Counted from the stretch's first letter, positions 7,180-49,330 are shown. The stretch: DNA of 57,385 bases from Nanobdellota archaeon (GCA_013329215.1 DUKS01000012.1:1-57385); one strand, 5' to 3'. Made by a program: numbers and translations. Notes: generated by a model from the letters alone, not told the origin.

Positions 7180-7252
7180 TGAGGCCGCGAGGATTTGAAC
7201 CCCGGTTACAAACACCCCAAGCTTGTGTCCTACCAAGCTAGACTACGGCCCC
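7180..7252 (-). tRNA. tRNA-Pro (anticodon GGG), 73 nt, no encoded CCA, no intron
   Basis: Hand-folded cloverleaf from GGGGCCGTAGTCTAGCTTGGTAGGACACAAGCTTGGGGTGTTTGTAACCGGGGTTCAAATCCTCGCGGCCTCA. 7-bp acceptor; anticodon stem CAAGC/GTTTG; loop TTGGGGT with G37; T-loop TTCAAAT. Confidence 0.9.
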
Positions 7253-38222: not shown

Positions 38223-38600
38223 ATGAAAGCGCTGGGCAAAAGAGGGGAAGCTGAAGAGCTGGAAACACTTACACTGTTTGATGTTGTGCTTGGGATTGTG
38301 GTTGCAACTTTTCTGGTAATTGCCGCGCTGTCGTTCAGCAGCATTTCATCATTCGGCAGGCTGTACCTTGAAAAAGACGTGTCTCTTCTCACAAGCGCGG
38401 TGCTGTCATCCCCCGGGCAGATTACGCTGAAATACCCTATAGGAGAAGATTACAGAGTGCAGATGTGCGAACCTGAAACCAATATATGCAATCATGTGAA
38501 AGTTGTGCATGACCCCACGCTTCTTGGCGTATTAAAGAAAGACAGGCTGGTATTCGGCTCAAGCCCTGCAACAGACCTTAGCCTGGAGAGGGAAGAATGA
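38223..38600 (+). CDS. Pilin-like protein (class III signal peptide)
   Basis: MKALGKRG|EAEELETLTLFDVVLGIVVATFLVIAALSF. TATA-like GATATATAAA ~28 nt upstream. Confidence 0.5.
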   Translation: MKALGKRGEAEELETLTLFDVVLGIVVATFLVIAALSFSSISSFGRLYLEKDVSLLTSAVLSSPGQITLKYPIGEDYRVQMCEPETNICNHVKVVHDPTLLGVLKKDRLVFGSSPATDLSLEREE

Positions 38601-39172
38601 GAATAGGCAAAAAGGCCAGCTATGACTTCAGCAGGAAGGCAATCTATTTTATAGTTGTCCTGTTTGTGCTTACGTTCATATTCCTTTACATGCACGGCGC
38701 CATTGTAAATTACAACAAGATTGCGGTGCAGAAAGAGGCTGCAATAGCAGGGGTTGTGCTTGCGCAGGAAGCGATAATGTCGCCCAAGTGCTTTGCATAC
38801 GTGGACGCGGCAACAGGCAGGGCTTATCCGGGCATGATAGACCTTGAAAAATTCAACAGCGAAGGCAAGCAGCGCTGCATGGAATACCTGAACATCCCTT
38901 ATAAAATAACGCTTTTGTCATTTGGGAACGTGCCCGAGCTGCAGTCTGACGGAAAAACAATAGCAAAAGGCAGCCAGGAAGAGCTTAAAGAAAAAGTTGT
39001 AAGAAGCGTGCTGATAATGAACAAAGGCCAGGTTACAAGAGGCTCAATGACATTTGAGCTTAATGACTATTTCATAGATGACAGCAAGAAAGAAAACTCA
39101 GAGCCTTATGAGGAAATATCAAGGCAGTCTGAGGAATTTTATGAGAATGTGGGGGCAACTGTGTCTATCTAA
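38597..39172 (+). CDS. N-terminally anchored hypothetical protein (pilin-like operon member)
   Basis: One N-terminal TM helix (AIYFIVVLFVLTFIFLY). ATGA overlap with the upstream gene. Confidence 0.45.
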   Translation: MRIGKKASYDFSRKAIYFIVVLFVLTFIFLYMHGAIVNYNKIAVQKEAAIAGVVLAQEAIMSPKCFAYVDAATGRAYPGMIDLEKFNSEGKQRCMEYLNIPYKITLLSFGNVPELQSDGKTIAKGSQEELKEKVVRSVLIMNKGQVTRGSMTFELNDYFIDDSKKENSEPYEEISRQSEEFYENVGATVSI

Positions 39173-39177
39173 GCAAA

Positions 39178-39756
39178 ATGAAAACGAACAGAAAAAAAGG
39201 GCAGACAGAGGATATATTCGCAGATCTTGTCATCGCGTTAATCCTGATTGTAGCGACAATAGCAATAATCGCTACAAAAGAGTATTTTCAGGGCAACAGC
39301 GTGCCTGTAAAAACACAAAAAGACGTAACAGGGCTCTATGGCACTGACATAGTGACATTGATGCGGACACCTGTGCCTGAATTTTACCTGCGCGATACAA
39401 TATGGCGTGAGTCTGAGGTAAAATTCGGAGAGATGCTGGCAATAATCGGCGAAGGGAACAAAGAAAAATACCCATGGGTATTCTCAAAGCAGATTGCGGG
39501 ATTTTCCCCAAACTACGGGTTTGTGGTGCAGGAAGGCGGCAAATGCACTGCAAGCTTTGAAGAGGCGCTTGGCATTTACATGCGCTTTTTATGGCAGGTT
39601 GCATTGTACAACGATAAAGGGGAGCAGGTATTCTGGTGCTCGCCAAAGGGCGTCAAGTTCACAAACGAGCGCGACCCTTACTGCCAGCTCATAAGGACAA
39701 AGCTGCCAACAGAGACAGGAAATACAATAACTGCTGAAATAGGGGTGTGCCCATGA
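39178..39756 (+). CDS. Pilin-like protein (class III signal peptide)
   Basis: MKTNRKKG|QTEDIFADLVIALILIVATIAIIA. Confidence 0.5.
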   Translation: MKTNRKKGQTEDIFADLVIALILIVATIAIIATKEYFQGNSVPVKTQKDVTGLYGTDIVTLMRTPVPEFYLRDTIWRESEVKFGEMLAIIGEGNKEKYPWVFSKQIAGFSPNYGFVVQEGGKCTASFEEALGIYMRFLWQVALYNDKGEQVFWCSPKGVKFTNERDPYCQLIRTKLPTETGNTITAEIGVCP

Positions 39757-41141
39757 ACAGAAAAGCGGTTGCTGTGCTTGCTATATCCGCAATCGGGTTC
39801 CTTGTGGCGATTATATTATTCTATAACAAGGCCATCAACCTTGTCCCGGGCCCGCCTGCCGAATACCTCGGCGAAACCCAGGTCAAGGTGTATGGAGCAT
39901 ACATTGAGGGGGAAAGGCAGCTGCTTTACATTGACATGGCTGCAGAATATGCATTTGACGCTGCAGGCGGGGCTGAAAAGCTAAGCGCAGCGAATGACGG
40001 ATTCCTGGTAAGGTTCGGGCTTGAATTCTCAGGATACCTGGACAAGTTTAACAGCATGTTTAACGCAGGCTTAAACATTTCAAATTACACATTTTATGCT
40101 GACAATACGGGAATATGGGGGGTCTGCAACAAGGACCTGAACCTGACAACAGAGCTTTACGATTATAAGTTCAGGCCTAACTTCAGGGTTGCTGCAAAGA
40201 ACAGGCTGCCGCAGGAAGTGCAGCAGCACTATGAAGAGCAGGCTCAGGAAGCTCCTGCAGAGGAGCCTGTGCAGGAAGTGCCGGCAGAGGAAGAAACGCC
40301 AGTAGAGCTTGTTTCCGGCAATGTAAAATTCGTTGTAATGAGCGATATCCACACATTCCCGGAGGGTGGCCGGGCTTTAAGGATAGCGGCCGCAGATGCT
40401 GTAAAAGCATTAAACCCGGACCTGGTGGTTATGACCGGCGACATTGTGTCAGGCGACCCGGATACAACACTTGAATCAAGAGTAACAGCAATGTGGAGCC
40501 TGTTTGACACTGAAACAAGAAGCAGGCTGGGCAGCATACCTATTGCAGCCCTCGGCGGGAACCATGACATGTATACATCCCAACTATTGGAGGGATACAC
40601 AAATTACTGGAATGAACATCGGCCCGCCCTTGATGTAACAGGCAATTACCCGCTTTATTATTCATTTGACTTCAACAATGTGCATTTTGTCATGCTTAAG
40701 AGCAACAGGGCGCGTATGGAAGAGTCGCAGCTCGAATGGCTCGCAGATGACCTCGGCAATGCAAAATCCGAAGGCAAGGCTTCATTGGTGTTTTCCCATT
40801 ACGCCCTTGCCGCCATGAAACTAAACGACCCGGATGTGCTGCAGCCAAATGCAAGGCTTAAGGACATCTTAAAGCAGAACAATATTATAGCATTCATACA
40901 TGGCGACACGCATGTCTTTTTCAGGGGACTGACAGACGGGATTAATGTAATAAATCTAGCGTCTGTTGCCGGCGTAAAAAGAAAGCTGGCCGGCGCAGAA
41001 ACGAACACGCCGCGTATGATAATGGTCGGGGAAATAAGCAACGGGCAATTAAGCACTTATGAGCTCATAGAGCCGGATTATCTCACGCAAAGGTTTGACG
41101 AAAGCGTGATTGCGGGCATAAGGCCACCAGGCTTTAGCTAG
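39753..41141 (+). CDS. Membrane-anchored extracytoplasmic calcineurin-like metallophosphoesterase
   Basis: N-terminal TM helix. Motifs VVMSDIH, MTGDIVSGD, GGNHD, FSHYAL, IHGDTH. ATGA overlap with the upstream gene. Confidence 0.7.
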   Translation: MNRKAVAVLAISAIGFLVAIILFYNKAINLVPGPPAEYLGETQVKVYGAYIEGERQLLYIDMAAEYAFDAAGGAEKLSAANDGFLVRFGLEFSGYLDKFNSMFNAGLNISNYTFYADNTGIWGVCNKDLNLTTELYDYKFRPNFRVAAKNRLPQEVQQHYEEQAQEAPAEEPVQEVPAEEETPVELVSGNVKFVVMSDIHTFPEGGRALRIAAADAVKALNPDLVVMTGDIVSGDPDTTLESRVTAMWSLFDTETRSRLGSIPIAALGGNHDMYTSQLLEGYTNYWNEHRPALDVTGNYPLYYSFDFNNVHFVMLKSNRARMEESQLEWLADDLGNAKSEGKASLVFSHYALAAMKLNDPDVLQPNARLKDILKQNNIIAFIHGDTHVFFRGLTDGINVINLASVAGVKRKLAGAETNTPRMIMVGEISNGQLSTYELIEPDYLTQRFDESVIAGIRPPGFS

Positions 41142-42348
41142 CCGCCCTTCTTTTGATTTTCCTTGCAACGCCAAAAACAGGGAACCCTATTGTCAGCGCA
41201 GCCAGAATGTCTGACAAAGGCCTGCCAAGCCCGAGCATTGCATATAGGCCCCTTACAATGGAATAGCCTGAAGCGAGATACTCTCCGATAATGTCAATTA
41301 ACCCGCCATTTACCTTATCTATCTGCTGCCCGCTCTTTTTCTCCAGGGCCTGCTTTTCAATATCATCCGCCTTTGCAAGTATCTCTGCCCTATCATTAAA
41401 GTAATCAGCATCTGCAAGGCCTGTTTCAATCCTGCTGCAGATATCCTCCGCAGTTCCGTAATGCCCCAATGAGATTTCTGCTTCCGCCTGTGTAATTAAG
41501 ACGGAATATTCCTGCCCCATATCTTCCTGAAGCCTCTCACTAAAGGAGTCCGTCATTTCAATCATGCGCGAAGAATAATACTTGTGCCCGCCCCTTAACT
41601 TAAAAGCAAGCCTTTGGCCGCATGCGTGTGCCTCACCATATTTTTCAGACAAGAGGTATGTTTCGCATTCGGCTAATTCATCCAGTGCTTCACAGTAAGA
41701 AGAATTCTGCGATGCATTCCAGTCTGTATAAGCATGTATCCCTGTGCATACAGCTGTGCCCAGCAGACCGGCAGCAGCAAGCCCGAGAAGCGGGTATTTC
41801 AGGCGCGCCATTGCTGGATTAAACCCACCCCCGCCTTCTCTATCGCTTCTTCCCGCGCCATGCTGCGCCCTGTACCTTGATGAAAAGTCGTTTGCAATGT
41901 CTTCTATCGGCTTTGAACTGTCTATGGTGTATCCTGCTTTGCCTGCCAATGCATCCGCAAACAATATAGCTTTCAGCTGCTGGATATTCCTTGCTTTCAG
42001 CACAAGCGATTTCGAGCCTCTTGCTTCAAGCTCGCGGATGTAAACAGCAGCCGCCATTTTGTCCGCTGCATCAGGATCGCCTGCGCTAATGCCTGAAGAA
42101 GATATCGCAACCGGTGTTTCACAACAGGCATAAAGCAGACCTCCCCCCAAATCATGCCGGCTGCAGCCTGCGTAATCCGCGCATATAACCTCTTTCACGC
42201 TATAAGCGCCAACCATTCTGCCGAGCACGCCGCGGTCCATTGACCCGACAAAATAATCCAGCAGCAGCTGCTTGTCAAGGCTCAACCCCGTGTTTTTTGG
42301 CCTGCGTTTTCCTGCGATTATCTGTGCCGCACAGTCAACATCCCGCAT
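41134..42348 (-). CDS. Hypothetical membrane protein: ~200-aa cytoplasmic N-domain, a TM helix, ~150-aa outside domain and a C-terminal hydrophobic segment. Last gene of the E1/JAB operon.
   Basis: ATG 42348 overlaps the AsnC-like gene stop by 14 nt. TM YPLLGLAAAGLLGTAVCTGIHAY. The longer track ORF (to 42492) overlaps the regulator gene. Confidence 0.5.
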   Translation of the reverse strand: MRDVDCAAQIIAGKRRPKNTGLSLDKQLLLDYFVGSMDRGVLGRMVGAYSVKEVICADYAGCSRHDLGGGLLYACCETPVAISSSGISAGDPDAADKMAAAVYIRELEARGSKSLVLKARNIQQLKAILFADALAGKAGYTIDSSKPIEDIANDFSSRYRAQHGAGRSDREGGGGFNPAMARLKYPLLGLAAAGLLGTAVCTGIHAYTDWNASQNSSYCEALDELAECETYLLSEKYGEAHACGQRLAFKLRGGHKYYSSRMIEMTDSFSERLQEDMGQEYSVLITQAEAEISLGHYGTAEDICSRIETGLADADYFNDRAEILAKADDIEKQALEKKSGQQIDKVNGGLIDIIGEYLASGYSIVRGLYAMLGLGRPLSDILAALTIGFPVFGVARKIKRRAAS

Positions 42349-42760
42349 CTTCCTGCTTAACCTCCTCAACAATAAAATGCGTACGTTTTGAACTGCAAAG
42401 CCTTGCAGCCTGCTCCTCAAATTCATAATATGCTCCCATATTGCGGAATATCGCCGTTGCCATGACAGCAAACCTGCCTGAAGACACTGCAAGCGAGTTG
42501 GTGTTCCGGCTCTTTTTTAAAAATGACAAAAGCCTCCTGCTTTTCGGGTGGAACAGCATGAGCGCGTGCACTTCAAAACCGAGCGCCTTAAAATCAGGGA
42601 GAGTTGTGTATTTCAGCATCTTAGCCTCCGCGCGCTTAAGCGCCCTCATTGCAGTTTGCCTTGACATGCCCAGCTTGCTTGCAATCCCGGACAGCCTCTG
42701 CCTGGGGTCACGCCTAAGCTCCCTTACTACCTCATTCTCATAACCGTTCAATTGCACCAC
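42335..42760 (-). CDS. Lrp/AsnC-type HTH regulator inside the E1/JAB operon
   Basis: HTH RLSGIASKLGMSRQTAMRALKRAEA followed by a RAM-like beta-alpha-beta (FEVHALMLF..). Apparent GTG start overlapping the E1-like gene by 23 nt. Confidence 0.6.
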   Translation of the reverse strand: MVQLNGYENEVVRELRRDPRQRLSGIASKLGMSRQTAMRALKRAEAKMLKYTTLPDFKALGFEVHALMLFHPKSRRLLSFLKKSRNTNSLAVSSGRFAVMATAIFRNMGAYYEFEEQAARLCSSKRTHFIVEEVKQEDAGC

Positions 42761-44081
42761 CCTGTTTATGGCATTTGCAGCCTCTGATTATATTGCATGC
42801 GCACTGCCTTTCGGCAGGCAGGTAAGACACTTTTTCTGTAAGCTGTTTTTTTGAGAAATACAGCATCTGCCTCCCGGAACTTTCAAGCCCGGTTAAAGAA
42901 GCACCCAGCTCGGCCGCCATCATCGCGCCCGCAAACGCATTGCACATAACAATGTTCGATTCCTGCATTGTATTGCAGGCCTGCGGCTGCGTGCTTGCCT
43001 GTTCAACATTTCCTCTTCTGCATTCCAGGCAAATGTTGTGATTGTATATGTCAAGCCTTGCCGTAAAAGGGCCAACGCCGGCATCGATTAAAACAATGTT
43101 GTTTGCAACAGCATACCTGCTCAAAAGCTCCCTTGCGCCCCAATTGTCAACGCACGAGAGCACAGCAGAATATTTTTTGCCTGCAGTTTTTGCTTCATTC
43201 TCATCAAAAAACCTGCCGAACGCGCGCATATTCGCTCCAAGCAGGCTTTCGAGCCTTTGCTTAAGCACAGCAGCCTTATTCCTGCCTATTGCATCATAGT
43301 ACAGCACCTGCCTGTTTAGGTTTGTCGCATCAATATCATCGCCGTCATAAACATCAAAAGGAATCCTGAGGCAGGCAAGGTTCAAAGCAGCGTACGTGCC
43401 TATCCCGCCTGCGCCAACAACAAGCACCCGCCCGCTTTTCAGCCTGGGAAACGAAACAGCCTTTTCTGCCCTTACAGAATCCGCTATTGACATTTTTCTG
43501 AAAAACCTGCCTTTCGCAAAAAGATTATAGTTTAAAACTCCGGAAACAGCCTCATCCCCTTCAAGCCCAAGAAGCGCTTTTCTTATTTCGTCCAGTGCAA
43601 TTGCAGCGATTAAGCCTGACGAAAACGAGCCCTGCTCTTTTCCATTATACCTGCGCATGGCTGCTGTTTCCAGGCAAGCATGGCCTTTTTCCCCACTGTA
43701 GCCTGCATATATTGATGCGGAAATATCATCGCTCGAAGCGCTTACAAAAAGCCTTGCCTTCCCTGCATATTCACATGCAGCTTGTTTTGAGGCTTCATTG
43801 TTTGTGAAATCAGCAACAACATCAGCAGGCCCTATGCTTCCGGCGTTTGCGGCAGTATTCAGGCGTATTTCCGGGTTTATTTCACTAATGAGTCTTTCAA
43901 GCGGTTTTTTAAACAAGTGCCGCTGCCTATGATTTTGCTGCACCAGTGTTATGTTTCCTATCCCCAGGCCAGCCATGTACAGCAATGCGTAATCACTTAC
44001 CATTGAATCCCCCACCAGCACAACACGGCTGTTTCTAAGTATAGCCTGGTCAAAAACAGATGACTGCCTTGTATAGTCCAT
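42738..44081 (-). CDS. E1-like (ThiF/MoeB/UBA superfamily) enzyme with tandem domains: degenerate N-terminal and intact C-terminal adenylation domain
   Basis: C-terminal half: RVLVVGAGGIGTYAALNLA, DGDDIDATNLNRQ, SCVDNWGAR, CLEC ... CACNIIRGCKC. N-terminal half: same fold pattern but GDSMVS replaces GxGxxG, and LVQQNHRQRHLF replaces DxDxxxxSNLxRQ. Confidence 0.8.
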   Translation of the reverse strand: MDYTRQSSVFDQAILRNSRVVLVGDSMVSDYALLYMAGLGIGNITLVQQNHRQRHLFKKPLERLISEINPEIRLNTAANAGSIGPADVVADFTNNEASKQAACEYAGKARLFVSASSDDISASIYAGYSGEKGHACLETAAMRRYNGKEQGSFSSGLIAAIALDEIRKALLGLEGDEAVSGVLNYNLFAKGRFFRKMSIADSVRAEKAVSFPRLKSGRVLVVGAGGIGTYAALNLACLRIPFDVYDGDDIDATNLNRQVLYYDAIGRNKAAVLKQRLESLLGANMRAFGRFFDENEAKTAGKKYSAVLSCVDNWGARELLSRYAVANNIVLIDAGVGPFTARLDIYNHNICLECRRGNVEQASTQPQACNTMQESNIVMCNAFAGAMMAAELGASLTGLESSGRQMLYFSKKQLTEKVSYLPAERQCACNIIRGCKCHKQGGAIERL

Positions 44082-44082
44082 A

Positions 44083-45081
44083 TTAGTTCACATTTGTAAC
44101 CCTGCTAATGCCCGGGGCTCCTGTTATTCTCTGTCTCTCAAACCGGCTGTCTGTGAGGAAAGCATACGGCTTTGCATTGCTCCTGTATTCCTCTGTGAGC
44201 ACAGCCCTTGCCTTTTCCATCAATGCCTCAAGCTGCAGCTTCGGATTGTCAGGATGCAGCCTTTTTATTGAGCCATAATCATACCTGCCTGTGCATATGC
44301 ACTGCAATGGCTTTCCGGCAGCAGGAAGCGAAGGGTGGCTGTAAGGGTTAAGCACATAGAGCTTGCCAAAGTCAACCGAATCCGCGTTCATGAATACAGG
44401 GGCGCCCACTTCTGCCTCTCCAAAGCTGTAGTAAGCGCCGTTCTTTCTCTCATAAAGGATGTAAGGCTGTATTTTTGTGAAAACATAGAAGCGACTGTCC
44501 ATTATCCTAAAGCCCACCTGCTTTTCATTGTCATAAAAAATCCCTTCTGCAATGCTGTCCAAAGCCATACGCAGGGGGCTGCCTGCCGCGCGTTTCCTTA
44601 TTTTTTTCTTATAATCCGCTTCAATATCACTTACTGCTGCTATGTGCGACAAGCCAAGATTAAAATTTCTTCCTCTAACAAAAATATCCCCCCGGCTGGA
44701 TTCAAAAAGCGGATACACCATAGAATTAAGAAAAAGCAGTTCCTTCTTTGGCAGGACATGCTCTGCTATCGCACCGCCGCCCACAGCGCCCGAAAGCTGC
44801 GTGATAACAAGCAGCGCAGGCTGCAAATGCGGGCTTTGTGTTCCGGATTCTGCCTTTGTCCTTATTGCGGAAAGCAGGCCCGAATGCATCCCTGATTTTG
44901 CCAGATAATCCTGCTCAAGCATCGGGATTGTTGTTTTTTGCACAAGCCCGATTCTGCATCCGAAAAAGTCCATATACGCGCCCCCATAGCCATTGCATGC
45001 CTGATAAACAGCAGGATAGACAATAACGCACGGGCCTTCTGAAAAATACCTGAAGAATGTGTCAGGAACAGGCATGCCCAT
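44083..45081 (-). CDS. Hypothetical protein; the C-terminal ~140 aa is a candidate E2 (UBC-like) domain
   Basis: YVLNPYSHPSLPAAGKPLQCICTGRY resembles the E2 HPN-loop-Cys signature. It is preceded by beta-strand-like segments (FYVFTKI, YILYERKNG, YYSFGEAEV) and followed by a helix. Inference only. Confidence 0.3.
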   Translation of the reverse strand: MGMPVPDTFFRYFSEGPCVIVYPAVYQACNGYGGAYMDFFGCRIGLVQKTTIPMLEQDYLAKSGMHSGLLSAIRTKAESGTQSPHLQPALLVITQLSGAVGGGAIAEHVLPKKELLFLNSMVYPLFESSRGDIFVRGRNFNLGLSHIAAVSDIEADYKKKIRKRAAGSPLRMALDSIAEGIFYDNEKQVGFRIMDSRFYVFTKIQPYILYERKNGAYYSFGEAEVGAPVFMNADSVDFGKLYVLNPYSHPSLPAAGKPLQCICTGRYDYGSIKRLHPDNPKLQLEALMEKARAVLTEEYRSNAKPYAFLTDSRFERQRITGAPGISRVTNVN

Positions 45082-46465
45082 CACCCGGATTAAGTGTTTT
45101 CATATTCTCTGCAAGCTGTTTTGATTTTCCAATGCACCTGCCCGCATACTCTCCTGTGCTGATTATGCCTAATGCCTCATTCACAGCATCCTTGTGTATT
45201 TGCTCCAACACCCCCGATTCCTCCAGCCTTGCAATGCATTCTTCAACCTTGTCCAGCCTTTTTTCATAGTCTGCTGCGTTCCCGTCAAACACACCGGACA
45301 ATGCGGCAAACATGTCCACTACAGCCTTGTCAGCATCCATATGATTTCTGTGGCCATGCCTGTAAAAGTCAACTGAACCGAGGAAAAGCTGCACATACAA
45401 AAGGTGCAGTTCCCTTGCGCCATTAAAGTATTCATTGTTTGACTTGTAAGGTGCCTGGGAAACAATTGCTTCCTGCTTTTCCCCCGGATTTAATATGCCT
45501 TCAAGCCGTTTTTTGGCAGGTAGCCTGCTGCAGGCAGGAATATGCCTTGCTGTTTCTTCCTGCGAAATGGATTCAACAGACTTTATGCGCGACGCAAAGC
45601 GCAATGCAGATTCCCGGTCTCCAAGATTAATCCTGAAAATGCCATGGCTGCTTTTGAGCTCAACGCTGTTATCCCTTGCTATTGCTTCAAATGCAGGCCT
45701 CTCCCTCTCCGCCATTGCAAGCGGCTGCGCAAACTGCAGCTTTCTTTTGAATAGCTCTGTGTCTTTCAGCCTGGCGGCATGCTCTCTTTGATTGTCAAGC
45801 GAGAAAGAATATTTTTCCCCAATCTCCGCAAGATGCTCCTGCGGCAGGCAAACATTCGGCATTGAGCAGGCTGCCAGCCCAAGCCCGGCTTTTGTGTGCT
45901 TCAATTCCCCGCCCTTAATGCTGAACAGCTCTGCAAGATATTTGCCATTGCCTTTCGTATAAGCCCCTGCATTTATCACTATGCTTAAGAACGAAGAAGG
46001 CAGAACCTCTTCAACTGATTTTATGCAGTATTCGGTTCCCGCCTCAAGCATTATGCGCCTGCCCTGCATTGTCTGCGCATTAAACAGGTCCAGGCACGGG
46101 CCGCCTGCATTAAAATCCCAGCGCCCGGCCTTTTCATTATGCTTTTTCATTGCAGCAAGCTTTGACTTTATATGTTCGTGGTCTGTATGCGAATGAAAAA
46201 GCCCGTGCACGCCGTGGCTGTGCCACATGCCAACAAGGTGTGCGCCTGCCTTGTATAGGTCCATGCACGGGAACTCTGATGCAGAAGCCCTTGATATTGA
46301 GCCGTACTGCTCGGGAAAAAAGAAGCCCGTAATCCTGCCGCTGCCTTTTTCTGAATAGAGATACCCCATGCATTCTATATCTTTTCCAGCAAAGCCTGAG
46401 ATTTCCCTTGCATAAAGGCACATTTCGGCGAATACAGCCGCTTCCAGATTCACGTATTCTTTCAT
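45062..46465 (-). CDS. JAB/MPN (JAMM) metalloprotease with a ~370-aa C-terminal extension of unknown function
   Basis: Upstream Glu in KDIECMGYLY and a complete HSH-x7-S-x2-D (WHSHGVHGLFHSHTD, nt 46181-46222). ATG 46465 forms an ATGA overlap with the upstream stop. Confidence 0.8.
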   Translation of the reverse strand: MKEYVNLEAAVFAEMCLYAREISGFAGKDIECMGYLYSEKGSGRITGFFFPEQYGSISRASASEFPCMDLYKAGAHLVGMWHSHGVHGLFHSHTDHEHIKSKLAAMKKHNEKAGRWDFNAGGPCLDLFNAQTMQGRRIMLEAGTEYCIKSVEEVLPSSFLSIVINAGAYTKGNGKYLAELFSIKGGELKHTKAGLGLAACSMPNVCLPQEHLAEIGEKYSFSLDNQREHAARLKDTELFKRKLQFAQPLAMAERERPAFEAIARDNSVELKSSHGIFRINLGDRESALRFASRIKSVESISQEETARHIPACSRLPAKKRLEGILNPGEKQEAIVSQAPYKSNNEYFNGARELHLLYVQLFLGSVDFYRHGHRNHMDADKAVVDMFAALSGVFDGNAADYEKRLDKVEECIARLEESGVLEQIHKDAVNEALGIISTGEYAGRCIGKSKQLAENMKTLNPGDGHACS

Positions 46466-46887
46466 CTGCACCCTACATCATCGTAGCGCTTTACAGCCAT
46501 GTCAAGGCAGTCATAAGCTATGCCGTCAGCTGTATGCCGCTGGTCAATATAGCCCGCAACCCTGTCATCAAGGCGTATGATTTCTGTTTCAGCGCCTATG
46601 CGCTTTTTTTTGGTGTTGTCTGCATTATACACGCGCACTTCGCAAAATGTGTTTGCGCCGTTGTGCGCTGCAAGGTATTCTTTTATTTCAGGAGCGGCCC
46701 CTTCCTGGCTGTTGCCTGCAATTTCTTCAATGACTTCCCTGAACGTGGCTTTTCTCAGCCTGTCATCAAGCTCTGCATAAACAGCCCTTGACTCGTAATC
46801 AGCTTTTTCAGCTGCGTCTTTCGCGCCCGCCGCCTTTTGCCTGTTCACTTCTGTGTTCACTATGCCCACAAGTTTGTTCTCACCCAT
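46462..46887 (-). CDS. Hypothetical protein, first gene of the E1/JAB operon
   Basis: 141 aa from ATG 46887, with AGGAG 9 nt upstream; alternatives are ATG 46896 and TTG 46917. No recognised motif. C-terminus is ..KRYDDVGCR. Confidence 0.45.
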   Translation of the reverse strand: MGENKLVGIVNTEVNRQKAAGAKDAAEKADYESRAVYAELDDRLRKATFREVIEEIAGNSQEGAAPEIKEYLAAHNGANTFCEVRVYNADNTKKKRIGAETEIIRLDDRVAGYIDQRHTADGIAYDCLDMAVKRYDDVGCR

Positions 46888-46931
46888 CTTTTTCATCTCC
46901 TGAGCCGAAGCCCGCAATTACCCTGTATTCG

Positions 46932-46941
46932 TTTTTAATAA
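46932..46941 (-). promoter_or_regulatory. TATA-like box of the E1/JAB operon
   Basis: Minus-sense CCTTATTAAAAAC, ~40-50 nt upstream of the candidate start codons. Confidence 0.4.
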
Positions 46942-46963
46942 GGATTGCCGAAAAAAAACATCA

Positions 46964-47043
46964 GGATTTTCAGCAGAATGGAAAAATCCCGCAGAACTTC
47001 CGTAAAAACAACGGGAATTTCCTGCCTTTGCATTGGAAATTCC
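46964..47043. promoter_or_regulatory. Two related inverted repeats upstream of the E1/JAB operon
   Basis: GGAATTTCC-N12-GGAAATTCC (47014-47043, perfect 9-bp arms) and GGATTTT-N12-AAAATCC (46964-46989). Confidence 0.5.
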
Positions 47044-47081: not shown

Positions 47082-47726
47082 TTACCTATAGCATTTTTTC
47101 AAGTTTTTTTTTAATTTCCTGAAGTCTTTTTCAACTGTCTTTTCCGCCTTTTTCACGTCCTTCTCAACATCTTCAACTTCCTCAAGCTCATGCAAGTGGT
47201 GCTTGCCTGTGGGCTTTTCATAGAACGGAATTGCCTTGACTAGCCTTGGCGCCCTTGCAACCGGCCTCATAATCCTTAAAACGCGCTCTGTCCTGCTTAT
47301 CTTGCCTGCGGCTTCCGCCTCTTTTATCAGCTTCTCGCTTTCGCCAAACAGCTTTGCAAACTCTTCCCTACCCTGGACAATCGTGTGCAGTATTGACTGG
47401 CCTTCCTTGACCTCTGCAGAGAACCTTGCAAGGAAAACAACTTCCTCAACAAGCCTGAATACCAGGACGAACGGAAAAACAGCTATTATGTCAATCCAGC
47501 ATTCCTTAAAGAAGGTCTTGAAGTTTCTTATCCTGTTGTACTTGAACCCGAGGTCCACGATGAATAAAGAGATTATGGCATAATCCCCAATCTCAAGGTA
47601 AAGTGCATAATGCTCTGCAAACTCCTTGAAAAAGATGTTAATTATTATGATGCCTGCGAGCAGGATTAATGCATAAGGTATAGCCCTGTCCACGAAGGAT
47701 TCCACCTTGTGAAGCCATAGTTTCAT
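47082..47726 (-). CDS. Membrane protein resembling an isolated voltage-sensor (S1-S4-like) domain, with no pore domain
   Basis: Three TM helices including the S3-like WIDIIAVFPFVLVF. An Arg-every-third segment RVLRIMRPVARAPRLVK appears after a ~45-aa insert. Charged C-terminal tail. Confidence 0.35.
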   Translation of the reverse strand: MKLWLHKVESFVDRAIPYALILLAGIIIINIFFKEFAEHYALYLEIGDYAIISLFIVDLGFKYNRIRNFKTFFKECWIDIIAVFPFVLVFRLVEEVVFLARFSAEVKEGQSILHTIVQGREEFAKLFGESEKLIKEAEAAGKISRTERVLRIMRPVARAPRLVKAIPFYEKPTGKHHLHELEEVEDVEKDVKKAEKTVEKDFRKLKKNLKKCYR

Positions 47727-47999: not shown

Positions 48000-48578
48000 T
48001 TACGACAGCTTCAGCGTCCTCTGCTCTGTGAAAATGACATTCTTGTTTTTTAAGAAAGCAACAATCCTTGCCTCGCTTTCTGCAGGCACCAAAATGGAGC
48101 CCCTTCCCGCAACTTTCCCTTTTATTTCCGCAAGCAGGCCCTCGCCTTTTTTTCTCCCGTATAATGCGTATGAAAACATCACTTTCTCAGAAGCGGTCTT
48201 ACCTGCAAGCAAATAGGTTATAAGAAAGTAAGGCGCAACGCCGAGAAGCTCTTTTATTGATTTATTATGCCTTACGCTGAATCCCTCGTGAAGCACTGAA
48301 AGAAGCACTGGCTGAAACAGCTCCTCTGCAAACATCGGCTCTGTATGAAGGCTGATGCCTAACGAATCTGCCGCCTTTTTTGCCGTGTATAAAATGTTTT
48401 CCGCAGCCCTGTAATTCTTTTCCCTGAAAAAGCCGATTACATCTATGTCATTAGGATGCTCCTTTCCTTTCACTGCAGAGCCGAATATGAAAATGTCAGC
48501 AAGCAGCTTTTCTTTTTTTAGCAAGCTCTGCAATTCGTTTAAAAGCTTCTTCCTCTGTTGGGATGTCAATTGCTCCAT
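48000..48578 (-). CDS. Minimal nucleotidyltransferase (MNT)-domain protein
   Basis: FIFGSAVKGKEHPNDIDVIGF (GS..D.D motif). Confidence 0.65.
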   Translation of the reverse strand: MEQLTSQQRKKLLNELQSLLKKEKLLADIFIFGSAVKGKEHPNDIDVIGFFREKNYRAAENILYTAKKAADSLGISLHTEPMFAEELFQPVLLSVLHEGFSVRHNKSIKELLGVAPYFLITYLLAGKTASEKVMFSYALYGRKKGEGLLAEIKGKVAGRGSILVPAESEARIVAFLKNKNVIFTEQRTLKLS

Positions 48579-48894
48579 TTTTAAAAGCCTCCGTTACCTT
48601 TTCCCTTACTATTTCAAGCTCTTCCCTTGAAAGCTCCCTTGTATAAGTTCTCCTGTAAGTGCTGAACAGCCTGTCTGTAATGTCGTAAAGCGCAGGAATA
48701 TGCGCCTTAAGCATTTCAAACCGCTCATTGTGATCATTTGGAGCATGCTTCAGCTTTTCCTGCAGCGCCAGGTCATCAACTGCAAAAAGCGCCTTGAAAT
48801 AGTTTGAGCCTGACTCTGCGCGCATCCCCATCTTTTCCGCCAATAATGCAATGAGGAAATAGTTCCTTGCCTTTTCTTTAAGCACTTCAGCCAT
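48496..48894 (-). CDS. Helical HEPN-like partner of the MNT protein
   Basis: All-helical 132 aa. Candidate R-x6-H (RFEMLKAH). 83-nt overlap with the MNT gene. Assignment is tentative. Confidence 0.4.
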   Translation of the reverse strand: MAEVLKEKARNYFLIALLAEKMGMRAESGSNYFKALFAVDDLALQEKLKHAPNDHNERFEMLKAHIPALYDITDRLFSTYRRTYTRELSREELEIVREKVTEAFKNGAIDIPTEEEAFKRIAELAKKRKAAC

Positions 48895-49058: not shown

Positions 49059-49330
49059 TGCGGCGGAAGCCCGGAATTGTCTCATACTTTAACAATGGTT
49101 AATCCCTCGCTTTCCTCGGCCCTGCTAACCCGCAAGCGTTATCACAGTTGGTTAAGGCTGCTCCATTCCTGGCCTGACCTGATTCCCGAAAGCAACGACC
49201 CTGCAGGACAAGGTGTCAACGTACGGCAAGGGACCAAGGCCAAAGCATGACCCGCTCCCAGGCGATAGCCCCTTCATAGGTTCGTTTAAGGTGATAGGGT
49301 AGAACCAACACCCCGGCATATCCACCGCAT
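49059..49330 (-). ncRNA. ffs: Signal recognition particle RNA (archaeal 7S-type), ends approximate
   Basis: Minus-sense CAGGTCAGGCCAGGAATGGAGCAGCC (nt 49156-49181) matches the universal helix-8 motif with a GGAA tetraloop. The 5' GCGGTGGA pairs with the 3' TTCCGCCGC. TATA box lies ~25 nt upstream. Confidence 0.8.

Follow-up and report, generated by a model that had tools for sequence, protein, structure and literature searches.

A stretch of 57,385 nucleotides (nt) from a Nanobdellota archaeon (GCA_013329215.1 DUKS01000012.1:1-57385; hereafter the window, meaning the whole stretch that was analysed) carries six minus-strand open reading frames (ORFs) between positions 46887 and 41134, all of them overlapping or abutting, which encode among others an enzyme of the ubiquitin-activating (E1) type and a peptidase of the JAB/JAMM kind. 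This operon, which an original prediction from the sequence alone had described as an unrecognised ubiquitin-type conjugation or defence module, is the subject of the present study. The ORF listing reproduces the predicted six-gene layout with every one of its junctions. We refer to the 141-amino-acid (aa) protein as P1, to the 332-aa protein as P3 and to the 404-aa membrane protein as P6, while JAB, E1 and HTH (for helix-turn-helix) denote the other three (Table 1). A chance arrangement of ORFs was considered and rejected, since the operon is conserved: its six genes recur in unchanged order in at least four related lineages of metagenome-assembled genomes (MAGs). Its G+C content of 0.48-0.50 lies inside the range of the window and is not anomalous.

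Table 1. Features of the operon, with positions counted from the first nucleotide of the window
Feature	Position	Strand	Description
Conserved upstream element TTCTGCGGGATTTTTCC	46980-46996	minus	candidate operator
TATA box TTATTAA	46935-46941	minus	~50 nt 5' of P1 start; conserved CAGCAA before box
P1	46462-46887	minus	141 aa, first gene of operon
P1 predicted mature end, Gly139	46473-46471	minus	codon
P1 predicted removable tail, Cys-Arg	46470-46465	minus	2 residues
JAB	45062-46465	minus	467 aa; ATGA overlap with P1 at 46462-46465, read directly in the sequence
JAB domains			catalytic, ~residues 1-110; helical C-terminal extension, ~350 aa
P3	44083-45081	minus	332 aa; 20-nt overlap with JAB
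P3 H249-P250	44337-44332	minus	invariant
P3 C263	44295-44293	minus	invariant
E1	42738-44081	minus	447 aa; 1-nt gap after P3
E1 domains			inactive N-terminal adenylation domain (IAD), residues ~1-200; active ThiF domain (AAD), residues 213-429
E1 crossover-loop Cys369	42977-42975	minus	14 residues past CxxC
HTH	42335-42760	minus	141 aa; 23-nt overlap with E1
P6	41134-42348	minus	404 aa; 14-nt overlap with HTH

An alignment of the region upstream of P1 with those of three related loci (L002, L005 and L013) shows zero variation in the columns of the TTATTAA box and of the preceding CAGCAA, and the TATA-like box that had been proposed in front of the operon is thus invariant ahead of the operon in four genomes. 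Farther from the start, the block TTCTG-G...TTT-C (TTCTGCGGGATTTT, ~46996-46980) is also invariant in all four aligned regions and represents a candidate operator that the HTH protein of the operon itself may bind. The operon proteins of these four genomes are only 38-65% identical, and the invariance of the promoter blocks in spite of this divergence makes the assignment of one conserved promoter to the operon well supported by the alignment.

The E1-like enzyme and the JAMM peptidase

The Pfam family ThiF (PF00899) matches E1 with 131.5 bits against a cut-off of 28.1 (E=3.6e-38). The match falls into two stretches, which identifies a tandem protein and bears out the predicted tandem-domain ThiF/E1-like enzyme. 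In the N-terminal half the (R/K)Q motif is kept and the glycine motif is degenerate (GDSMVS), which marks this half as the inactive adenylation domain. The active half carries G223-x-G-G-x-G, NLNRQ, D312, a CxxC at 351-354, Cys369 and a C-terminal CxC...CxCH. These motifs, including Cys369, are invariant among close relatives and recur in all eight E1s examined, one of which has NIARQ in place of NLNRQ; a Cys lies 12-22 residues past the CxxC in each of the eight. In a PDB sequence match to E. coli ThiF, Cys369 aligns with the Cys of the '...RNCRTAG...' segment, which we take to be ThiF Cys184. Judged by its motifs, the 447-aa protein is a tandem ThiF/E1 enzyme with one inactive and one active half, and this IAD-plus-AAD layout is a hallmark of conjugating E1s, not of the homodimers ThiF, MoeB and Cap2 (Chambers et al.).

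The equivalog models of NCBIfam score far under their cut-offs against E1, with 89.5 bits versus 275 for TIGR02356, 59.9 versus 376 for MoeB and 46.2 versus 450 for UbaA. On these scores E1 is not an orthologue from a cofactor pathway, and MoeB/ThiF orthology, which had been named as one way in which the conjugation reading could be wrong, was rejected. The protein is also free of a rhodanese domain.

The second gene product contains a JAMM motif (E31...H82-S-H84-x7-S92-x2-D95) in which all five residues are invariant in an alignment of three sequences, so that the complete signature reported at the outset is confirmed. The HxHx7Sx2D core is found in seven of the eight proteins examined that occupy the JAB position. 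The eighth, a 549-aa protein encoded at L018 9240-10889, is without the strict motif and may be a degenerate or variant peptidase. With the Pfam model Prok-JAB the protein of the window reaches 24.6 bits (E=2.4e-5), narrowly below the cut-off of 25, and Prok-JAB matches were recorded for its counterparts in more distant operons. By motif, the 467-aa protein is a JAMM/MPN+ metallopeptidase. For its C-terminal extension of ~350 aa there is no Pfam match and no known homology, and sequence and profile searches of the PDB with JAB returned nothing meaningful.

The candidate modifier and the candidate carrier

P1 is the best-conserved protein of the operon, with 58-65% identity among close relatives, compared with 49-56% for E1, 41-45% for P3 and 38-39% for JAB. 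Its close homologues are invariant through ...K-x-YDDVG and then vary in the length and sequence of a tail, which reads CR, TR, SRCI, ACAYNRRSS, ICI or NGTA or extends to 28 aa. The longest case comes from L005 (4118-4621, P0008), where the homologue runs 28 residues past ...DDVG and the called start of JAB is shifted to match; a stop codon may have been lost, or the tail may really be this long. The small proteins of distant operons are homologous to P1, sharing a K-x-T-F-R-x-V helix, a VY-x-x-x-N strand and a C-terminal Y-x-x-[IL]-[DE]-[LM]-x-[VI] strand, and they end in Gly or Gly-Gly followed by 1-11 aa. Examples, with a slash before the tail, are ...NPGG/SIKSI, ...HDEGG/RKYRTLDTLFK, ...INVGG/Y, ...PRVG/I, ...HEEGG/LEKKCKE, ...GQGG/Q and ...HEEGG/RARTLEERLRR. 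Across all small proteins examined the pattern is therefore a terminal G or GG plus 1-28 non-conserved residues.

The combination of a conserved body with a Gly or Gly-Gly end and an expendable tail, encoded beside a JAMM peptidase and an E1, makes P1 a likely precursor of a ubiquitin-like modifier (Ubl), with Gly139 as the predicted mature end. In Pfam neither the window protein nor the family consensus finds a match, and sequence and profile searches of the PDB gave none either, hits to HNF1 being low-complexity or chance. The earlier description of the 141-aa protein as unknown holds for the databases and gives way to a candidate modifier once the Gly-plus-tail signature is considered. In the same way, the remark that no ubiquitin gene could be recognised is literally true and overlooks P1, so that the module is not missing its modifier. 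A separate MoaD/ThiS-like ORF ending in GG was sought in the window, and only one spurious antisense ORF turned up.

P3 was traced much farther by profile than by word matching. A word-indexed search with P3 found only three relatives, whereas a HMMER scan of 1.84 billion representatives, with the alignment of P3 and these relatives as query, found 173 clusters at E<=1e-3 and 89 at <=1e-10. Nearly all members of the family carry HP[SAF]L-x8-11-Q-x-I-C. In an alignment of 86 sequences the sole invariant residues are G190, H249, P250 and C263, and the N-terminal half is variable. The HPS-x9-C-x-C motif pointed out at the start is present (H249, C261, C263), of whose two cysteines the second alone is invariant. 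P3 matches no entry of NCBIfam or PADLOC, and the two family members with NCBI accessions are both annotated as hypothetical protein.

An invariant His-Pro upstream of an invariant Cys, in a family adjoining E1 and JAB, makes P3 a candidate E2-like carrier, E2 standing for the ubiquitin-conjugating enzyme. We compared the P3 core (86 sequences) by hhalign with a small profile of the E2 fold family UBC; the reference sequences for this and for the Ub-type and MoaD-type comparisons below were entered by hand. The score was 19.3 (P=0.018), which two of 200 column-shuffled UBC profiles reached. The top local alignment sets HPS249-251, C263 and the next helix onto HPN, Cys85 and alpha2 of UbcH5. 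This alignment is suggestive and is no proof. The part of the predicted E2 that stands is thus the family beside E1 and JAB with its HP...C, and the UBC fold is represented by weak profile similarity only. Both a UBC fold for P3 and a beta-grasp fold for P1 are inferred from motif, size and context.

Conservation, accessories and neighbouring genes

Ten contexts were sampled to represent the P3 family at all levels of similarity, down to a P3 divergence of E ~1e-5. In all ten, the P3-like gene adjoins E1, JAB or both, and every context long enough to show them contains genes for a small protein, JAB, a tandem ThiF protein and a protein like P3; the contigs of L016 and L019 are short and cover part of the gene set only. 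The small protein is Gly-ended in all full-length contexts. The order is small-JAB-P3-E1-HTH-membrane in the window, L002-L005 and L013; small-P3-E1-JAB position-HTH_24-X in L015 and L018; small-P3-JAB-E1-X-(X)-Ser/Thr kinase in L010 and L017; and coiled-coil-small-JAB-P3-E1 in L008 and L014, with a metzincin-like gene next in L008 and the contig of L014 ending in E1. The four core genes are co-inherited despite this shuffled order. The gene set is thus kept well beyond close relatives, and the lack of conservation that would have spoken against a module is decisively not what was found.

The flanking genes are archaeal housekeeping genes (rubrerythrin, desulfoferrodoxin, DNA ligase, topoisomerase VI, eIF-1A, FtsZ, a proteasome subunit, Spt5 and RNase P). 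In four diverged genomes the locus sits at the same place between syntenic flanks. Named members of the P3 family come only from MAGs labelled 'Candidatus Woesearchaeota archaeon', 'Nanoarchaeota archaeon' or 'Candidatus Nanoarchaeia archaeon'. A scan of viral contigs found no relatives of the operon, and in the one full-text collection searched we found no publication that joins DPANN archaea with E1, E2 or JAMM systems, an absence that applies to this collection.

One locus is broken. In L001 (8747-12205 of a 261-kb contig) JAB is split into ORFs of 251 and 175 aa and E1 into ORFs of 105 and 288 aa, and P3 is identical to that of L002-L004; the splits reflect either long-read indel errors or pseudogenisation. 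A reverse transcriptase gene (RVT_1) lies about 4 kb upstream of this locus. In other loci the operon is followed by additional genes, namely a Ser/Thr protein kinase in L010 (13783-15660) and L017 (15218-end) and, in L008, an HExxH protein with a weak, sub-threshold Peptidase_M10 match. The kinase and the HExxH protein may regulate the pathway or act as its effectors.

The last two genes of the operon are accessories and not part of the core, HTH being present in part of the family only and P6 having been identified only in the close group of the window. HTH passes the cut-off of the Pfam model HTH_24 (23.3 bits versus 21.9) and fails that of HTH_AsnC-type (19.9 versus 27); the Lrp models of NCBIfam stay below their cut-offs (E ~1e-3, residues 8-107), and the RAM (AsnC_trans_reg) domain was undetected by Pfam. 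Of the AsnC-type regulator proposed earlier there remains a winged-helix protein that these scores weakly suggest to be a distant relative of Lrp/AsnC. It is 46-50% identical among close relatives, and an HTH_24 gene also occurs in the operons of L015 and L018. In P6 a hydropathy scan finds two segments of moderate hydrophobicity (186-204 and 377-395) on either side of a helical region, in agreement with a membrane protein. Its homologues, about 40% identical, measure 217-244 aa. The first ~175 codons (41824-42348, minus) are unique to this genome and absent from these homologues, and the start position, which gives the 14-nt overlap with HTH, agrees with that in L002. Neither P6 as a whole nor its N-terminal region has a Pfam match, and no other database match was found.

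Several further features of the window were recorded. An archaeal signal recognition particle (SRP) RNA (49060-49328, minus; 112 bits) and a tRNA-Pro(GGG) (7180-7252, minus) show the window to be chromosomal and archaeal. Directly upstream of the operon promoter lies a gene for a 214-aa protein (47082-47726, minus) with a sub-threshold Ion_trans match (21.7 bits versus 25). Two genes upstream of the operon, the region 48000-48894 (minus) encodes a 192-aa nucleotidyltransferase (Polbeta/NTP_transf_2/DUF6932) that overlaps by ~80 nt with an upstream 132-aa helical protein without Pfam match; together they look like a toxin-antitoxin pair of the MNT/HEPN type. On the opposite strand, 38223-41141 (plus) holds three genes for small proteins with N-terminal hydrophobic segments, one of which begins MKTNRKKGQTEDIF... 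and resembles an archaeal pilin signal, and then a 464-aa metallophosphoesterase whose 3' end overlaps that of P6 convergently by 8 nt. Relatives have four small genes in the equivalent opposite-strand position.

Readings of the operon and relation to known systems

Taken together, these observations lead us to favour, as the somewhat more probable explanation, a self-contained Ubl/JAB/E2-like/E1 cascade of protein conjugation that would be specific to DPANN archaea and equipped with lineage-specific accessories. The predicted ubiquitin-type module of E1, JAB and candidate E2 is supported to the extent that E1 and JAB are confirmed and the neighbourhood is conserved. The structure of the operon, the identities and catalytic residues of E1 and the JAMM peptidase, the Gly-plus-tail end of P1, the invariant His-Pro and Cys of P3 and the co-inheritance of the four core genes can be read directly; every step of the cascade we infer from them. 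P1 would be made as a precursor, and the JAMM peptidase would trim its tail after Gly139; such pre-processing of a Ubl by JAB has been demonstrated experimentally in the Bil (BilA) and Bub (BubAB) systems. E1, acting as an intramolecular IAD-AAD pseudo-dimer, would adenylate Gly139 and bind it as a thioester at Cys369 of the short crossover loop, from where the modifier could be handed to Cys263 in the HP...C active-site motif of P3. The variable N-terminal half of P3 may then pick the targets to which P3 transfers the modifier, just as the E2s of Bil have been proposed to recognise targets without a ligase (E3). The JAMM peptidase would also be able to reverse the modification. The winged-helix HTH protein probably acts at the conserved upstream block to regulate the one promoter of the operon, and P6, a predicted two-pass membrane protein, may be a lineage-specific accessory such as an anchor, a sensor or a target.

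A number of results weigh against this cascade. As regards P1, hhalign detects no profile similarity of its family to ubiquitin/NEDD8/SUMO or to MoaD/ThiS/Urm1/SAMP, its AlphaFold2 model from six aligned sequences is poor (predicted local distance difference test, pLDDT, 44.9), and Foldseek of this low-confidence model against the PDB gives no match at E<=0.001. The situation is similar for P3. In Pfam, UQ_con, Prok-E2 and UEV match neither P3 nor the consensus nor 85 of the 86 family members, the remaining one having a weak UEV match (E=0.006). Sequence and profile searches find no relative of P3 in the PDB, the AlphaFold2 model from four aligned sequences is poor (pLDDT 52.7), and Foldseek of this low-confidence model against the PDB again gives no match at E<=0.001. 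The hhalign probability for P3 and UBC is just 2.6%, the Asn of HPN is missing, and the spacing of 8-13 residues from HP to Cys is longer than in UBC, where it is about 8-10. E1, for its part, has a short crossover loop and is without the mobile helical CYS/SCCH insertion domain. Finally, no target or E3 is identifiable, and the cascade is a prediction from sequence.

The same chemistry might instead serve an antiviral role, in which a Bil-like system tags virus proteins, HTH is a stress-responsive repressor and P6 an effector or sensor. We hold this to be unlikely, yet worth serious consideration, as the set of components (Ubl, JAB, E2-like protein, IAD-AAD E1) is that of the phage-protective Bil operons and transcription factors are tied to a large fraction of bacterial Bub operons (Bub preprint). 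Genes resembling toxin-antitoxin systems are found nearby (PIN/RHH in L002, L004 and L005, RVT_1 in L001, the nucleotidyltransferase at 48000-48578 in the window), and with ~173 clusters the family looks patchy rather than universal. The evidence from context points the other way. PADLOC returns for E1 generic ThiF-domain matches to Cap2 models only (AAD 1e-14), and its other matches are a very weak one for JAB (E=0.019) and weak ones of HTH to CasR/CARF models. The syntenic housekeeping flanks, the constant location in four diverged genomes, the absence of copies from the viral contigs scanned and the unremarkable G+C content likewise argue against an antiviral role, and the defence alternative offered with the original prediction finds no support here.

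A different departure from the favoured cascade concerns structure. P1, as a modifier of ~140 aa with no or only a partial beta-grasp, and P3, as a Cys carrier of new fold, may be structurally new solutions recruited to an E1/JAMM core. We regard this as rather doubtful. If it were true, genome-reduced DPANN archaea would possess an independently assembled protein-tagging system, which could remodel their own proteome or that of the host during episymbiosis.

The operon could also belong to a sulfur-carrier pathway, with P1 as a carrier of the ThiS/MoaD type that JAB trims and E1 adenylates, and with the Cys of P3 supplying persulfide sulfur for a thiocarboxylate that serves the thiolation of cofactors or tRNA. 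Trimming of a carrier tail by a JAB peptidase is known from CysO/Mec+ and QbsE/QbsD. The best NCBIfam matches of E1 are ThiF and MoeB models, its best PDB match is E. coli ThiF, with which it shares the aligned Cys369, and known sulfur-carrier systems likewise pair a JAB with a carrier whose G/GG end precedes a short tail to be removed (Iyer et al. 2006 neighbourhoods). We nevertheless judge the pathway improbable. The equivalog scores of ThiF and MoeB are far too low (89.5 versus 275), E1 has the tandem IAD-AAD layout and no rhodanese domain, and P1 is twice as large as ThiS/MoaD and unmatched by profiles of that kind. P3 is without similarity to rhodaneses or cysteine desulfurases, and thiamine, molybdopterin, cysteine-synthase or Ncs6-type genes were not noted in the gene tables of the ten contexts. 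As for a pathway of ribosomally synthesized and post-translationally modified peptides (RiPPs), in which the ThiF-like enzyme would adenylate the P1 C-terminus towards a nucleotide-peptide or heterocycle (cf. MccB, PaaA), with JAB as maturation protease and P6 for export or immunity, we think it highly improbable: the AAD does match MccB and PaaA structures (1e-8 to 3e-10) and the operon includes a membrane-protein gene, but these matches cover the nucleotide-binding part only and are weaker than those to ThiF, SUMO E1 and Cap2, P1 has 140 aa conserved over its full length with no short hypervariable core peptide and ends in Gly, not Asn, and most family members have no P6.

Operons with a complete Ubl/E1/E2/peptidase set have been described in bacteria (Bil, Bub and CBASS) and in a few eukaryote-related archaea. 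A protein-conjugation cascade at this locus would add a family that, by its named members, is confined to Woesearchaeota and Nanoarchaeota and comprises ~173 clusters of an E2-like component, which together with its modifier is invisible to current domain libraries. The fused inactive/active E1, a eukaryote-like trait, would now appear in another deep archaeal lineage. The four proteins form a concrete system open to reconstitution in E. coli and offer a handle on protein regulation in organisms not yet grown alone. Should the fold of modifier or carrier prove new, the definition of ubiquitin-type conjugation would be widened. The system is thus relevant both to the evolution of ubiquitin and to DPANN biology.

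Among archaeal systems, sampylation (SAMP/UbaA/HvJAMM1) resembles the operon in its modifier ending in Gly-Gly, its ThiF-type E1 and its JAMM peptidase. UbaA is a single-domain, homodimeric E1, and to our knowledge sampylation has no E2; the E1 described here reaches only 46.2 bits with the UbaA model, whose cut-off is 450. The Ub-E1-E2-RING-Rpn11 operons of Caldiarchaeum subterraneum and of Asgard archaea likewise combine a modifier, an E1, an E2 and a JAMM peptidase in an archaeal host. Their proteins are readily recognised by sequence as ubiquitin, UBC and RING, whereas the modifier and the E2-like protein of the present operon match no model, a RING protein is absent and E1 is a fused IAD-AAD protein.

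Type II CBASS (Cap2/Cap3) and Bub (6E) share with the operon the chemistry of E1, E2 and JAB and the conjugation of proteins in prokaryotes. They differ from it in the CD-NTase, the E2-E1 fusion and the DUF6527 protease, none of which occurs here. CBASS itself was rejected as an identification, as PADLOC finds no CD-NTase or effector among the six operon proteins and the E2-like protein and E1 are encoded by separate genes. Bub works through oxyesters and without catalytic Cys residues, whereas Cys residues are invariant in the operon.

The closest known system is Bil (BilABCD; type 6d of Iyer et al. 2006, type II from CEHH/6C). The two are set apart by their hosts, bacterial for Bil and archaeal (DPANN) here, and by a housekeeping rather than a defence context. 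The E1 of the operon is without the mobile CYS insertion of ~80 aa and has its conserved Cys in a crossover loop of ~15-20 aa. In P3 the His-Pro precedes the Cys, whereas the CEHH signature of BilB has its conserved His downstream; P3 has H249 as its lone invariant His, on the N-terminal side of the invariant Cys, and the CEHH signature does not describe it. P3 is furthermore 2-4 times larger than an E2 and undetected by E2 models, P1 is not recognisably beta-grasp, JAB bears its 350-aa extension, and the accessories (HTH, membrane, kinase and metzincin-like proteins) differ by clade. What the operon appears to have in common with Bil is the core of the machinery: a JAB/JAMM peptidase that uncovers the C-terminal Gly of a Ubl, an E2 function and an IAD-AAD pseudo-dimeric E1, all encoded in one operon that includes no E3, and a Zn site formed from the CxxC of the crossover loop and C-terminal Cys residues.

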